Made by a program: the position numbers. Of a stretch of 64,000 nucleotides of DNA, positions 1 to 64,000 are shown in pieces. Source of the stretch: Turneriella sp. (GTDB lineage: Bacteria > Spirochaetota > Leptospiria > Turneriellales > Turneriellaceae); the NCBI GenBank assembly GCA_965279515.1, contig CBDIID010000003.1:96001-160000 (forward strand), in the 5' to 3' direction. How positions within the stretch are numbered: position 1 is the stretch's first letter; each line of letters opens with the position of its first letter.

Positions 1-3000
1 AATTCTGGCACTTGCAATAAATAATTCAGCTTCTATTCTTACCTCGGATAAAGACTTCCAACATTATCAAAAGCATGTGCAGTTTGAGCTGCAAATGATT
101 GGCCCGTGATGTCGCCCAACGTGGATTTTACGCTGACGTTTTTTGACGCTTGTGTCATTTATTCAATCTGTAAAGCCGATTTGCGTCAAAAAATGTGGTC
201 GTAGCGGCTCGCGGCGGCGCGCGAAAACACACCTCCCGGTGTGCGCGTCGTCCGCGATCTTTGCCGCGGAGACCCGAGCACGCGAGGAGCTACGGCACCG
301 CAGCGGCGCAGCGCGTAAAATTTGTTGTCTGTCGTAAGCCTAGGCAATTTTTTTCAGGCGTGGCTCGACTGTATAGCCAAGCGCGGCCAATACCTTCAGC
401 ATAAAATCAGTGCTAATATCTGATCTGCTTCGATTTAACAATGCAGTAATTCTTGTTCTTGAAGTTCCAACTCGTTTAGCCAAGGTTTCATGCGTCAGCT
501 TGGACTTACTAAATAGGCCAGCGATATCGGAGTTCAACTTTGAACGAAATACCGCGTCGGCGGCTTCATATTCAGTCAAACCAATAGCCTCAAAAAGCTC
601 TTTTGGATTCTTCGCTGTGATTACATTTAATTTAGCCATTTGTAGCCTCCAAAATTTCTCTCAATCTCTTCTTGCCGATATCTATTTCGCGTTTCAATGT
701 CTTCTCTGATTTCTTGATAAAAGTGTGAAACACTAAGACTTTGCCAGCTACTTTGAGGTAGTAAAAAGCCCTGTATTGATTCTGCGAATCCTTAACCCTC
801 AATTCGGAGACACCTGGAGCGACAGAAGGCATTGGTCGCGAATCTGGCATACTGACGCTCTCTCCCAGTTGTAAGTCGAGTATCAAATCCCCCAGTTTTG
901 CCTTGATCTCCTTGGAGTAGGACTTAATCTCGGACAATGCTGCCGGATGGAAGTCAGCATCTTTCACTGCTTAATGTATTGAAAACAATACATGGCGTCA
1001 AGAAAAACTCGCGTGGCTTATGACAGACAACGTGGAATTTACCCGAAGTCGATAGTGCGTCGCACAATAAATGCAGTCTTCACTCGAAAGCCACGACTTG
1101 ATGCACTATCGATTTGCCGAAGGTCGCCTCGTTGCGCCCGACCAAACAAACGTCCCGTTTGTCGGGCGTCAACGACTCCTGGCGACCGAGGCCGAGCACG
1201 CCCGCCAACGGAGTGCGGGCGCGCGCAGCGGGTAAATTTTGTTGTGCGAAGGTTTTGCGCCATACGGTAGATGCTTAGCAAAAAATTCCATGGCCTAAAT
1301 TAGAATCTTAGTTTCAATGAAATCTAGTCTTTTGCTTAACAAATCTGCCATTTGACGGGTCGGGCGGGCATCCACCGGTATCAAGTCTTCGATTGATCTC
1401 CCTTCTCGCACGGCGTCTACCCAGCGACCCATTTCATACACATAACCAGAAAGAGCCGCCGCTGGCGTTTCGTTATCAATCGCTGATATATAAGCAGATG
1501 GCAAATCACCCACGACTACCCAAAGCCAATTATCGGCCTTGCCATTTGGCAATATCTCAAAGAGGAAAACGGCCACTATACCACCAACTCCCAGGCCAAA
1601 ATGCGCATCTTTGATTTTCTTACACCAAGAGTGGCTTCTCAGATAGTCACTAGCCTCGAGATACATCTTCTTAAGCATTTTAGTGTCTGCGGCGTCTTCC
1701 CCGCGCATCTTTTTGATCGGCACAATATTCTTAAATTCAGCTTTCATATTTATTGCAAAAGTTCCATCAAACTCCAGCAAAATACCCTTCCACGATGAAA
1801 AATAAATGCGCAGGTTCAATATCAGAACATCGGTAACGAAAAGTCATCACGACATCGGTAACAGTTCTGCCTCAGGCTTTGCCGTGGTTTCCTCCTGATT
1901 TGGTGTAAACAAATAATTGTTCCGATCGATGTAGCCCAATAGCAGGCCACCGAAGTAGACGTCGATGCGCATGTCGGCGATAAACCGGAGCCCGATCGGG
2001 TAGCCGTTAAAAGAATTGCCGATAAATATCCGGTGCTGCTTGTAGTTGGTGTAACCGCGGTCATTTACCATGCGTACGATGCAATCCTCAGGGTAGGCGG
2101 GTACTACGTCGCCAATATACGGAATTTCAGATGGTAGGTAGAACTCTGATGGCGTCCTCATGCCCAGGGCTTCATGCGGTCGCACATTGTTGAAGTCTTC
2201 GCGCCACTGATCAAACGAAATCTGGTGAAGCTTTAGATCACCGCGAATGCGCCCCTGCAGTTCCGTGCGGATGTCTCTGTGCATACGCTCATGGCCACCA
2301 TTCTGGGCTGGCTTTCCCGGATCAATGCGGTCCAGAGAAATTCCCAAGGACAGCCACCAGACTGACAATTTTGTCAGGCCAAAGAGTCCCCACGATGATG
2401 CGAAAGGAGTTCCGTTGTCAGAGCGAATAATTTCCGGCAGACCATAGCGTTTGAAGAGTCTGGCAAAGTGTTGTTTTACATTGGAAATATTGCCCTTTTC
2501 CAGTATCTGTATCGACAGGATGTACTTACTGTACTCATCGCGAACTGTCAGAGGTTCGCATTTCTCTGCATGTGCAGTATACCACCACCCCTTGAAATCA
2601 ACCGTCCATATGTGATTGGGATGCGTCGCCTTTTCGCGAAGCATCAGCCTCTCTCCGGTTCTGCGGCGCTTCTTTCCTCTTGGCCTTGTCAGACCAGAGC
2701 GCGCCAGAAGGCGATCGACTGTAGGAACTGAAATATCGTCTTTGCGCTCCGGGTAAAGCCTGCAGAAAACCGCATAGATCTTCTTGGCTCCCCAGCGCGG
2801 CCTGTTATTCTTTATGCGAATAATATCGCAGATTGTTTCTTCGTCAGTGCGGTTCGGATTGCCTCCTGGTTTTCGTGACAACTCCGCCAATCCAGCTAAG
2901 CCTTTTTCCAGAAACCTTGCCTTCCACTTGTACCCTGTCTTGGTGCTGATGCCAAACTCGCGGCACAGCTCTGTGAAACTCTCTACGCCCTCCAGGGCGC

Positions 3001-63000: not shown

Positions 63001-64000
63001 CTAAATCATCGATGTGAAAGCCGCCATATTCTACCTCCACTAATGGCATTGAAAATTTAGCTTTATCGGTCATGCCTGCGCTGAGCTCAATGGCCTTTAG
63101 GTCATTTTCTGTTGCGAAATAACTGGCTACTCTCCTGTTCGGAAAATTCGGGACAAATTTATATTCAGCAATATCTTCAGACCACAAGGGAATCGAAGCT
63201 AAAAAAACAAGGACTATTGCTTTCATATTCGGTTAATAGATTTTAGAAAGCCTATGGTGAAAAGTAAAATAGTCAAGCCACGTATGTCGTGATAGTACCC
63301 CCAAACATGACGTACAACGTGGATTTTACGCTGACGTTTTTTGACGCTTGTGTCATTTAATCAATTTGTAAAGCCGATTTGCGTCAAAAAATGTGGTCGT
63401 AGCGGCTCGCGGCGACGCGCGAAAACACACCTCCCGGTGCGCGCGTCGTCCGCGATCTTTGCCGCGAAGACCCGAGCACGCGAGGAGCTACGGCACCGCA
63501 GCGGCGCAGCGCGTAAAATTTGTTGTGTGAAGTTAGCCAACGGGAGAATAGCCTTCTGCGACCAGAATTGAATAATCTATTTTGCGGAAGTTATGCTTTT
63601 CCTTTCCATCCGGTTTCGCATAGAGAAGATAATCTCCATTTACCTTAAAGCAAATACCGTGCAGCTCATATTGGTACATAATGCCCGGATTTTGGGGTAG
63701 GGTTTGGTATTCGTGGAGAATTCGATACTTTATGAGTATATCCTCAATTTGGCCAGCCTTGAGCAGGGCAGCTATTGATAAGTCGATTTCGCTGTATTCA
63801 TTAGCATTCAAAATATTTGTTGCATTGGGCTCTTCATGAAGCCATACTCCTAATTCGCCCAAAATATCGTCTGATTCCAAATAAGGCAACTCGTAGCCGA
63901 TAAATAACACAGGAGAATCTTGTATCTTAAGCGCTATGTCTTGATACCTATCGAAATCGTTGAATCGATATTCAGTAGAATAGATCTTCTGAATCTTTTT

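Follow-up and report, generated by a model that had tools for sequence, protein, structure and literature searches.

A probable integron-like gene-capture platform in Turneriella, with an IntI-related recombinase that lacks the I2-bearing insertion

Contig C3 of a Turneriella genome (G000) carries two large arrays of gene cassettes separated by long, structured, co-oriented repeats. We consider it probable (about 0.72) that these arrays are a chromosomal gene-capture platform resembling a sedentary integron, and that the platform uses an IntI-related recombinase, g02901, without the insertion that bears the I2 domain. The system most likely works like an integron, yet lies outside the IntI-based definition. 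The arrays are not categorically new, as will be described below.

Arrays and their folded repeats

The window, the whole stretch of 64,000 nucleotides that was analysed, covers the central part of array A. With a profile made from 45 copies of the repeat in the window, 156 matches were obtained on C3, and every repeat in array A (C3:92,991-169,929) and array B (C3:3,734,371-3,804,596) is on the plus strand, which bears out an earlier note of about 150 co-oriented repeats in two giant arrays. The full-length copies number 126, with 75 in array A and 51 in array B, and the 63 in the window are likewise co-oriented. Partial copies are scattered outside both arrays. The window repeat had no match among 72,556 plasmids.

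1..64000, no strand: central part of array A, 63 attC-like repeats plus spacers (profile search)
Contig 92,991-170,675: whole array A including attI-like end
C3 3,734,371-3,805,401: whole array B including attI-like end; 52 repeat matches, 51 full
AAC-to-GTT cores 1-9: 118-326, 1029-1243, 3163-3371, 4040-4254, 5386-5601, 8139-8345, 9183-9395, 10121-10329, 10982-11189
Cores 10-18: 11885-12094, 12812-13019, 13347-13553, 14091-14298, 14909-15117, 15306-15517, 16262-16469, 17044-17252, 17435-17642
Cores 19-27: 18352-18559, 19170-19376, 19565-19779, 20639-20824, 21679-21893, 22596-22801, 23575-23782, 25975-26182, 26880-27096
Cores 28-36: 27749-27955, 28460-28666, 29141-29351, 30051-30258, 31203-31417, 31979-32180, 32879-33095, 33815-34029, 34559-34767
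Cores 37-45: 35366-35574, 36160-36345, 37118-37325, 37876-38084, 38871-39083, 40189-40395, 42062-42270, 42907-43113, 43898-44113
Cores 46-54: 44570-44779, 45571-45787, 46705-46912, 48440-48646, 49645-49854, 50347-50556, 51299-51505, 52000-52207, 52832-53017
Cores 55-63: 53952-54158, 54874-55076, 55764-55972, 56760-56974, 57498-57705, 59325-59535, 59725-59934, 61991-62198, 63316-63524

The repeat core, from AAC to GTT, spans 186-218 nt (mostly 207-210). The earlier note had described a 235-bp site with RYYYAAC...GTTRRRY ends, and both parts of this description need correction: a length of ~235 is reached only when cassette-specific arms are added, and the two motifs fit only 19/126 and 18/126 copies. 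The consensus ends are AT-NN-C-NNNN-AAC (101/126) and GTT-NNNN-G-NN-GT (114/126). The companion claim, that the hairpins keep pairing through double changes, held up well. Among 50 of the 63 window copies, double changes occur at 35 of 52 pairs, and none of 500 shuffles attains the covariation score, in a test biased in favour of the structure because it was derived from the same alignment. The terminal helix, which joins two ends 200 nt apart, has double changes at 5 of its 14 pairs. Ten random copies gave folding z values of -4.0 to -8.2 against shuffles (predicted energies). The plus strand is predicted to fold more stably than the minus strand at 125/126 sites in circular form and 114/126 in the array, with AAC paired to GTT on the plus strand in 119/126 and 97/126, respectively. 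A 2-nt offset is present on the 5' arm in 118/126 copies. Rfam gave no match in the window at the gathering score, consistent with the earlier failure to find a family for the repeat.

10982..11189, plus (the presumed recombining strand): example attC-like core with terminal stem, 2-nt bulge on 5' arm and branched interior (predicted fold, covariation)

The large arrays apparently lie on the lagging-strand template. Replication orientation in a sister genome (G011) agrees, but near a skew switch; a second (G002) gave no clear orientation.

Cassettes and the crossover

Each spacer has its own terminal inverted repeat of ~15 bp with a fixed G/A mismatch. Positions 1-13 past GTT match the reverse complement of the bases before the next AAC at 0.87-0.97, except for position 8, where the G/A combination occurs in 120/124; shuffled pairs, used as the control for the variable positions, match at 0.30-0.55. 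These spacer-specific ends may bear on how cassettes arise.

Duplicated cassettes reveal the unit that moves. In four gene-bearing pairs, the left repeats are nearly or fully identical (1.0, 0.976, 1.0 and 1.0), whereas the right repeats are not shared (0.64, 0.65, 0.92 and 0.63; background between repeats 0.71) and the bases preceding the left AAC differ. The mobile unit is thus one repeat plus the spacer at its right, and the crossover maps within the invariant left AAC box, as expected for the R' box of a canonical cassette. This position had already been proposed from three duplicated cassettes, all of which were recovered together with a fourth that is shared by arrays A and B. The sequence identity of cassettes between the two arrays points to recent exchange, with gene conversion as another possible source. 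An IS481-like element interrupts one copy, the unit that begins at 59725, whose right repeat and left flank differ from those of its partner at 11885..12811.

10982..11884, minus: example cassette unit, left repeat + 220-codon ORF (11202-11864, minus) + inverted ends (~11190-11204 and ~11870-11884)
11885..12811, no strand: cassette + left repeat identical to the unit starting 59725 (left repeat 1.0, right 0.64)
29141..30050, no strand: RelB/YafQ toxin-antitoxin cassette, 97% identical to an array B cassette (Pfam, sequence comparison)
34559..35365, no strand: GFA-domain cassette, 100% identical, including left repeat, to an array B cassette (Pfam, sequence comparison)

The cassettes have a mean GC of 0.43 (97 cassettes of 300-1500 bp) against 0.53 for C3, so the low GC reported earlier for the array genes is upheld. 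Genes do lie on both strands, as was also reported, but the counts of 87 minus and 73 plus did not stand: by a mechanical call of the longest ORF per spacer there are 73 on minus, 43 on plus and 10 spacers without an ORF. On the minus strand, genes leave median gaps of 30 and 23 bp to the repeats (n=56), a tight fit like that of promoterless cassettes; on the plus strand the leaders are longer (108 and 74 bp, n=21). This eases the doubt raised by cassette genes on the "wrong" strand. In the window, toxin-antitoxin (TA)-type Pfam matches occur in 11 cassettes; 42 of 73 ORFs have no Pfam match and one matches SMI1/KNR4. PADLOC called no defence system among 64 window proteins and gave three generic matches (ankyrin, methyltransferase, NsnC). 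A scan of 11 ORF-less cassettes found no sigma-70-like site at the threshold used.

327..1028, minus: TA-type cassette, HTH_37 + Gp49 (Pfam)
3372-4039, 9396-10120, 15518-16261, 19780-20638, 20825-21678, 22802-23574, 32181-32878, 36346-37117, 55077-55763: other TA-type cassettes (Pfam)
15118..15305, no strand: ORF-less ~188-bp cassette, 12 copies across arrays A and B
17253-17434, 19377-19564, 59536-59724, and IS-interrupted 46913-48439: further window copies of the ORF-less cassette
1806..3147, minus: IS481-like element, inserted 15-16 bp ahead of a left AAC
~40708-42045, 47089-48423, 60635-61974: further window IS481-like copies

Contigs of four sequencing runs contain joints at the head of array A. 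These can be explained by short repeat contigs that fit several copies and are therefore uninformative on excision; sludge runs in which the organism had a small share were left out of the evidence. No RNA run was listed among the sequencing runs that contain this DNA.

The likely recombinase and its putative attachment sites

C3 2,926,093-2,927,193, minus: recombinase g02901
C3 2,927,201-2,927,215, minus: LexA-type box before g02901
C3 170,673: attI-like end of array A
C3 3,805,399: attI-like end of array B

The catalytic residues of g02901 (R225, K250, H316, R319, H342 and Y351) are invariant across 17 orthologs. That the protein lacks the IntI insertion, as first noted, is clear from several comparisons. 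It aligns with VchIntIA (2a3v) in two pieces, with 23 versus 64 residues between them, so that ~40 residues of the insertion, including the I2 region, are missing; its match to TIGR02249 is likewise in two pieces and scores 161 bits against a cut-off of 265; and its GLR-to-HxxRH spacing is 93, versus 133-139 in IntI. The best fold match is 2a3v; by whole sequence, an archaeal Xer matches best among PDB entries. In quick trees, the only kind built here for the recombinases, g02901 groups with IntI apart from XerC/D (SH-aLRT 100), in a broad group that also takes in IS91-type recombinases. An AU test did not reject monophyly of the insertion-less array recombinases (p 0.28), and no order of events is therefore claimed, whether IntI is nested among them or is their sister. 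The 99.99% complete genome encodes four tyrosine recombinases, none with the insertion; a second IntI-like one, at C3:2,781,225, matches TIGR02249 at 149 bits, below the cut-off. No canonical IntI exceeded that cut-off in 41 genomes, while two controls (G041, G042) scored 455-480 bits.

The link between enzyme and array comes from relatives. An ortholog stands at the head of an array and reads away from it, as intI does, in seven sister genomes (G002, G003, where the gene is split, G005, G007, G011, G012 and G013), in agreement with the earlier note and supporting its choice of g02901 as the likely array recombinase. An attI-like junction lies between the recombinase gene and the array in all seven. 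Other repeats with the same end signature adjoin the ortholog in six further genomes (G024, G025, G029, G034, G036 and G039). Among 20 genomes of the Leptospira family (f8) chosen by recombinase alone, 12 have a chain of at least two cassettes and two more have an adjacent cassette end, versus 0/16 control loci; three of the 20 have no cassette in the ~8.5 kb flank. The array is upstream of the recombinase gene in the window's genus (g1) and downstream in family f8. A plasmid of L. interrogans Linhai 56609 carries a related repeat. The G/A end signature was found at none of 14 canonical IntI loci. Recombinases that share the short catalytic spacing often lack an array, and only 8 of 38 of their loci showed the signature. 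When end complementarity was roughly checked at 15 canonical IntI loci, four candidate pairs matched at 7-10 of 13 positions, too few for a control.

The recombinase does not adjoin an array in G000, nor in G001 and G016 within the fetched flanks. Gene g02901 lies 0.8 Mb from array B and farther from array A, and the only repeat nearby is truncated and in opposite orientation. The doubt this raises is eased by the finding that both G000 arrays retain an attI-like end. The bases past AAC differ between attI and the repeat. Aligned attI sites have a TTGACA-like hexamer 32-33 bp from the crossover; a promoter scan at the array A site found two sites against 2.0 expected from shuffles, and thus no excess. 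The 15-nt pattern of the LexA-type box occurs four times on C3, ahead of lexA, recA, a PA0069 radical SAM gene and g02901. Of the nine genus genomes checked, seven have it at the recombinase, as against none of seven others, and the L. interrogans box differs. Judging from these sequence matches, g02901 is probably SOS-controlled.

Mechanism, rival explanations and known systems

In the proposed mechanism, the plus strand of the repeat would form a long, branched hairpin in which the left AAC is paired with the right GTT, as predicted from folding and covariation. The recombinase would cut the left AAC box, at the AA|C bond by analogy with IntI, and one strand would be exchanged with a double-stranded attI or another folded repeat, leaving replication to resolve the junction. 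In an excised circle, the ~15-bp inverted ends should lengthen the R arm to an almost perfect duplex that contains a single fixed T.G wobble. The two halves of the R arm come from different cassettes when in the array and would then pair poorly; this difference would favour insertion over excision. Strand choice may depend on the wobble pairs and the 2-nt bulge, where IntI reads extrahelical bases. Gene g02901 would act in trans on the two arrays of G000, each with its retained attI. Counting against the proposal, the I2 domain is held to be necessary for cassette capture by IntI1 (PMC7790495). We give even odds to the broader claim that cassettes are captured on folded single-stranded sites without I2, and that insertion-less IntI relatives in several phyla (Spirochaetota, Bacteroidota including rAID-1, and Bacillota) run true integron-type arrays by means of long cassette-specific R arms, a T.G wobble at a fixed place and a 5' arm with a bulge.

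The same platform and enzyme could instead use ordinary double-stranded Xer-type recombination with two strand exchanges, the hairpin serving transcript processing or cassette genesis. The missing insertion, which handles single-stranded substrates in IntI, and the archaeal Xer match would fit this, but we think it unlikely. The second strand exchange of tyrosine recombinases needs matching bases, and those past AAC differ between attI and the repeat; double changes preserve the terminal helix over 200 nt at 5/14 pairs; and in the integration of CTX phage, XerCD act on a folded single strand although they have no I2. It is true that IntI itself keeps double-strand activity on attI sites (PMC4792948). 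Somewhat less likely again, the G000 arrays are orphaned or served by another enzyme (XerCD or the C3:2,781,225 recombinase, with its own sub-threshold TIGR02249 match of 149 bits), with g02901 a detached relic. The distance of g02901 from both arrays, with only the truncated, inverted repeat close by, is what such a relic would leave; however, the gene is intact with its box retained, no repeat or cassette lies within 20 kb of the second recombinase's orthologs in G002 and G011, and the cassettes identical between arrays suggest recent exchange (or gene conversion).

We find it very improbable that the repeat is a non-autonomous mobile element or structured RNA that piled up between immobile, horizontally acquired genes. 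A branched covarying fold with G.T wobbles would suit a plus-strand RNA, and partial copies are indeed scattered outside the arrays, but this reading leaves unexplained the spacer-specific inverted ends, the units that move with their left repeat, the fixed orientation, the attI-like terminus and the link to one recombinase family, and the window had no Rfam match. The slimmest chance goes to an ordinary integron or CALIN with a canonical IntI that was lost or unassembled. In AAC/GTT ends, cassette layout and TA cargo, the arrays do match sedentary integrons; even so, none of the four tyrosine recombinases in a nearly complete genome has the insertion, 0/41 genomes pass a TIGR02249 cut-off that the controls exceed, site length and arm geometry are unlike attC, and the G/A signature is found at 0/14 IntI loci.

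If true, the broader claim on insertion-less IntI relatives would mean that integron-type platforms occur across Leptospira, for which surveys report none. In IntegronFinder 2 Table S1, all of the 30 available Leptospira rows (of 32) and the one Turneriella row list 0 complete, 0 CALIN and 0 In0, and these rows include L. interrogans Linhai 56609, the bearer of the related plasmid repeat. Integron surveys thus appear to miss the system, as the earlier note had predicted for IntI/attC-based finders. A literature search found no account of such a system in Leptospirae, though with rAID not among its terms it may have missed later rAID work. If our reading is correct, it suggests that bacteria have a second means of gathering and shuffling genes, one that has been overlooked, with more than 100 presumably swappable genes in this Leptospira relative.

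The arrays resemble sedentary integrons (Vibrio type, VchIntIA 2a3v) in their head recombinase reading away (in sister genomes), a junction like attI, AAC/GTT cores, a crossover in the box beside the start of the gene, predicted preference for one folded strand, small low-GC genes, TA and ORF-less cassettes, and SOS-type box. They differ in the ~40 residues, I2 region included, that g02901 lacks, in the cassette-specific ~15-bp inverted ends with a fixed T.G pair, and in the apparent placement of the large arrays on the strand that is template for lagging-strand synthesis. The sites are 186-218 nt long, versus 57-141 bp for canonical attC (PMC5371416), and their inner duplex has no single extrahelical base, unlike the L arm of attC, while the 5' arm has a 2-nt offset instead. 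It is generally accepted that cassettes could be recombined as single strands once the I2 helix had been gained, and no intermediates are known (PMC7790495). This question becomes directly testable in a natural system that combines attI, folded sites, a crossover mapped to one box and recent shuffling with the lack of I2. Under the broader claim, such arrays would be living counterparts of a pre-I2 integron.

The "integron-like" subgroup of tyrosine recombinases, with IS91- and IS3-associated enzymes (10.1101/542381), consists like g02901 of insertion-less IntI relatives, but is tied in the available text to insertion sequences rather than cassette arrays. CTX phage integration (IMEX) is similar in that XerCD, without I2, use a single strand folded so as to mimic duplex DNA; it differs in using host XerCD at dif for one element with no cassette array. 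The closest published layout is rAID-1 of Bacteroidales, in which, according to the passages available, a XerD-family recombinase heads an array of small low-GC genes with conserved intergenic repeats reminiscent of integrons (10.1101/471110), as here. The claim of a new integron type in the strong sense is therefore unsupported. The rAID-1 criteria include a recombinase >44% identical to B. fragilis BF9343_RS08045 and at least two co-directional downstream genes with GC <=41%; those passages define no attC structure, attI or crossover. Our stand-in for the B. fragilis reference, L190, is a rAID-type locus on a Parabacteroides plasmid with Tdi1 and SMI1/KNR4 genes. Its recombinase has the same kind of short catalytic spacing as g02901 (91 in L190), is 36% identical to it in another subclade, and groups with recombinases of Bacteroidota that have the G/A signature at their loci. 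The Turneriella arrays differ from rAID-1 in phylum, in lying upstream of the gene (genus g1), in having genes on both strands with mean GC 0.43, in cargo that is mostly unknown genes and TA pairs (one SMI1/KNR4 in 73 window ORFs) rather than orphan immunity genes, and in size, with up to 75 sites versus up to 31 genes; the repeats of L190 are short and degenerate. In the available part of a 2025 preprint, the mechanism by which rAIDs arise is called open (10.1101/2025.05.03.651265). The mechanism proposed here is a concrete one to test for rAID-1, and the broader claim, if true, would explain how rAID arrays are built.

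Repeat family, site fold and cassette unit

The integron-like system of this genome is real and unusually large, and the window is a section of a long array of a single repeat family. A search profile built from 45 window copies gave 156 matches on contig C3, and the full-length copies (n = 126; 75 in array A and 51 in array B, 63 of them within the window) all lie on the + strand, with a core from AAC to GTT of 186-218 nt (most 207-210). The 7-bp end consensus proposed in the earlier note (RYYYAAC/GTTRRRY) does not describe this family, being matched by just 18-19 of the 126 ends.

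In the consensus fold, based on 50 of the 63 window copies, AAC pairs with GTT, followed by a terminal stem and then by interior branches. Two-sided changes occur at 35 of 52 pairs, with a score reached by 0 of 500 shuffles, and pairing drops to 32-47% in slid controls; the covariation figures overstate the case, because the structure was derived from the same alignment and the copies are related. The inner duplex has a 2-nt offset on its 5' arm in 118 of 126 copies, and a 3-nt offset is seen by eye in related sites of the Leptospira family f8, of two other genomes (G025 and G029) and of locus L069. With DNA parameters, the + strand is predicted to be more stable than the - strand for 114 of 126 sites in place and for 125 of 126 circular forms. 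The predicted folds pair AAC with GTT in 119 of 126 circular forms versus 97 of 126 in place, and mean predicted fold energy is -74 kcal/mol for the circular form versus -62 kcal/mol in place.

The start of each spacer, right after GTT, is reverse-complementary to the bases that precede the next AAC. Among the 124 spacers compared, positions 1-13 match at 0.87-0.97, position 14 at 0.83 and position 15 at 0.77; position 8 never matches: 120 of 124 spacers have G/A there, which gives a T.G wobble on the + strand. Variable end positions match at 0.30-0.55 between unrelated spacers, and at a similar level across one repeat. Ten spacers have a poor end match, several of which contain an insertion sequence. 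A detector using only this signature (cassette-specific inverted ends with the G/A mismatch) finds chains nowhere but in the two large arrays and a single small one, always on the + strand.

Four gene-bearing duplicated cassettes have the left repeat in common (identity 1.0, 0.976, 1.0 and 1.0), and neither the right repeat nor the bases preceding the left AAC; two of the duplicated pairs have a member in each large array, and one of these two is 100% identical. Because the duplicates carry only the left repeat along, the mobile unit is the left repeat plus spacer, with its boundary within the invariant AAC, which bears out the placement of the crossover at the left AAC box in the earlier note. 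Minus is thus the "top" strand in integron terms, in agreement with the majority of main ORFs (minus and tightly fitting in 73 spacers, plus with longer leaders in 43, no ORF in 10).

Recombinase, attI-like sites and strand orientation

This genome encodes four tyrosine recombinases: XerD, XerC, the XerA/IntI-like g02901 (C3 2,926,093-2,927,193) and a further one at 2,781,225. In 7 of 13 same-genus genomes a g02901 ortholog lies at the array head, reading away from the array, and there a non-repeat, attI-like sequence comes after the arm and AAC of the first cassette. In one genome (G001) the 20 kb around the recombinase gene are free of repeats, four others have no cassette in the fetched loci (<3 kb, short contigs), and G009 has no clear ortholog. 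Both arrays of the genome under study end in an attI-like site of the sister-genome kind (C3 170,673 and 3,805,399).

All catalytic residues are kept in g02901, about 40 residues are absent from the insertion region in an alignment with VchIntIA, and the best match of its structure model is 2a3v. It groups with IntI, apart from XerC/D, in quick trees that place IntI as a separate long-branched clade and are compatible with IntI being nested or sister. Its nearest Atlas cluster is mostly Spirochaetota. Canonical IntI was not found in the 41 genomes searched; two control genomes scored above cut-off. The recombinase at 2,781,225 (L006:9226-10131) is also IntI-like, with intermediate catalytic spacing (105), and is present in G002 and G011; no array or transposase was seen near it here, and no repeat within 20 kb of those orthologs.

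A GTTC-N7-GTTC box of a single pattern occurs four times on C3: ahead of lexA and recA, of a radical SAM gene of the PA0069 family, and of g02901 (the box at 2,927,215). In order of coordinate, the boxes are at:

C3 2,600,652
C3 2,927,215
C3 4,249,241
C3 4,316,038

This spacing is that of the LexA box in alphaproteobacteria. Of the genus genomes checked, 7 of 9 have the box ahead of the g02901 ortholog, versus 0 of 7 others (some start positions are approximate). These genes form a candidate four-gene SOS regulon under a direct-repeat box with predicted LexA binding; the SOS box reported for L. interrogans is, in contrast, palindromic.

The GC skew of C3 has its minimum at 2.81 Mb and its maximum at 0.31 Mb, and both 16S genes are co-oriented. 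The recombining strand may lie on the lagging-strand template in both arrays, a tentative reading because dnaA is not at the skew switch. The dnaA gene is at C3 4,283,251, 0.9-1.5 Mb off both switches, and G011 has a similar arrangement on sampled loci. Canonical integrons in this orientation have at most 22 cassettes, according to published work.

Alongside the established features (unit, crossover box, end complementarity, linkage and missing insertion), a mechanism can be proposed in which the folded + strand would be cut at AA|C and a single strand exchange would be followed by replicative resolution, by analogy with IntI and with CTX phage and XerCD. The long cassette-specific arm might serve as a duplex binding arm for the Xer-like enzyme in the circle only, so that insertion would be favoured and large arrays could persist. 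Such a bias could account for the apparent lagging-strand placement of the recombining strand in both arrays.

Spacer contents

The median spacer is 716 bp long, and GC content is 0.43 in spacers versus 0.53 for the contig. A Pfam scan of 73 window ORFs left 42 without a match and found 3 transposases; toxin-antitoxin families occur in 11 window cassettes.

Inserted elements and ORF-less cassettes (window positions unless C3 is given)
1806-3147, IS481-like element
40708-42045, IS481-like element
47089-48423, IS481-like element
60635-61974, IS481-like element
C3 89,513, IS481-like element
C3 3,740,503, IS481-like element
C3 3,748,939, IS481-like element
C3 3,764,954, IS481-like element
5619-7235, IS1182-family transposase interrupting a spacer
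24735-25826, IS5-family transposase interrupting a spacer
15118-15305, ORF-less cassette
17253-17434, ORF-less cassette
19377-19564, ORF-less cassette
46913-48439, ORF-less cassette
59536-59724, ORF-less cassette
array B, seven further ORF-less cassettes

All 8 copies of the IS481-like element (NF033577, 209 bits; cut-off 224) are in or beside the arrays. Seven end 15-16 bp ahead of a left AAC, the outer edge of the cassette inverted end, and the eighth is inside a degenerate repeat; the element looks targeted to cassette sites. The ORF-less cassettes are a single type of about 188 bp (12 copies, 91-100% identity) with its own repeat subtype and no sigma-70-like promoter at the threshold used. 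Spacers, for example near window 4280-4300, also hold a small hairpin whose loop reads C(A/C)HGGANG; it is present 73 times in the 149 kb of arrays versus 45 times in the remaining 4.69 Mb, and often lies in plus-strand cassettes. An identical 15-nt end sequence is found in 14 unrelated spacers, including those at window 42271 and 45788 and three multi-gene spacers of array B, 2.5-9 kb long; these common ends are possibly a reusable cassette frame.

Spread and relation to known systems

In f8, 25 of 57 genomes have a g02901 ortholog at E 1e-60 or better. The flank test covered 20 ortholog loci with flanks new to the analysis (G045 and G052 left out): 12 have chains of at least 2 signature cassettes, 2 more an adjacent cassette end, 3 a flank of <300 bp and 3 no cassette, and chains occur in 0 of 16 control loci. 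The f8 array is 3' of the recombinase gene, with sites mostly 130-180 nt long. The f8 repeat matches 71 plasmid records, all Leptospira, and a Leptospira weilii plasmid carries three f8-type cassettes. As f8 is a family of the same class, these matches and the mostly Spirochaetota cluster of g02901 place the genome under study in the class of Leptospira, within a different order; it may be Turneriella-like.

From a GTDB scan, 80 recombinase loci among the matches listed were examined. Among these, the signature is present in 8 of 38 loci with short catalytic spacing (Bacillota, Bacteroidota, Spirochaetota and unassigned), 1 of 24 with intermediate spacing, 0 of 14 IntI and 1 of 4 unclassified loci. 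A Bacillota locus (L069:611-4467) has the same layout and signature, with sites of 275-352 nt. Plasmid matches H41-H65 are to a recombinase with the annotation TnpF or tyrosine-type, found mainly on plasmids of Acinetobacter (50 of 69 records matched). Over residues 30-267 it shares 62% identity with L073, a member from Bacteroidota.

In the IntegronFinder 2 survey (Table S1 of PMC9024848), counts are zero throughout for 30 of the 32 Leptospira rows and for the single Turneriella row. A literature search not aimed at rAID found no published account of the site anatomy, attI, crossover, SOS box or presence in Leptospirae. The system works like a sedentary integron, but its recombinase lacks the IntI insertion and its sites depart from attC geometry. 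The layout is already in print, since rAID-1 (recombinase-associated acquired interbacterial defence arrays) was published with a recombinase and integron-like repeats; 226 of 423 Bacteroidales genomes are reported to carry such a recombinase, of the XerD family, together with intergenic repeats that resemble those of integrons (10.1101/471110). The recombinase of a rAID-type proxy locus also lacks the insertion, is 36% identical to g02901, and is nested within a set of Bacteroidota loci that share this end signature.
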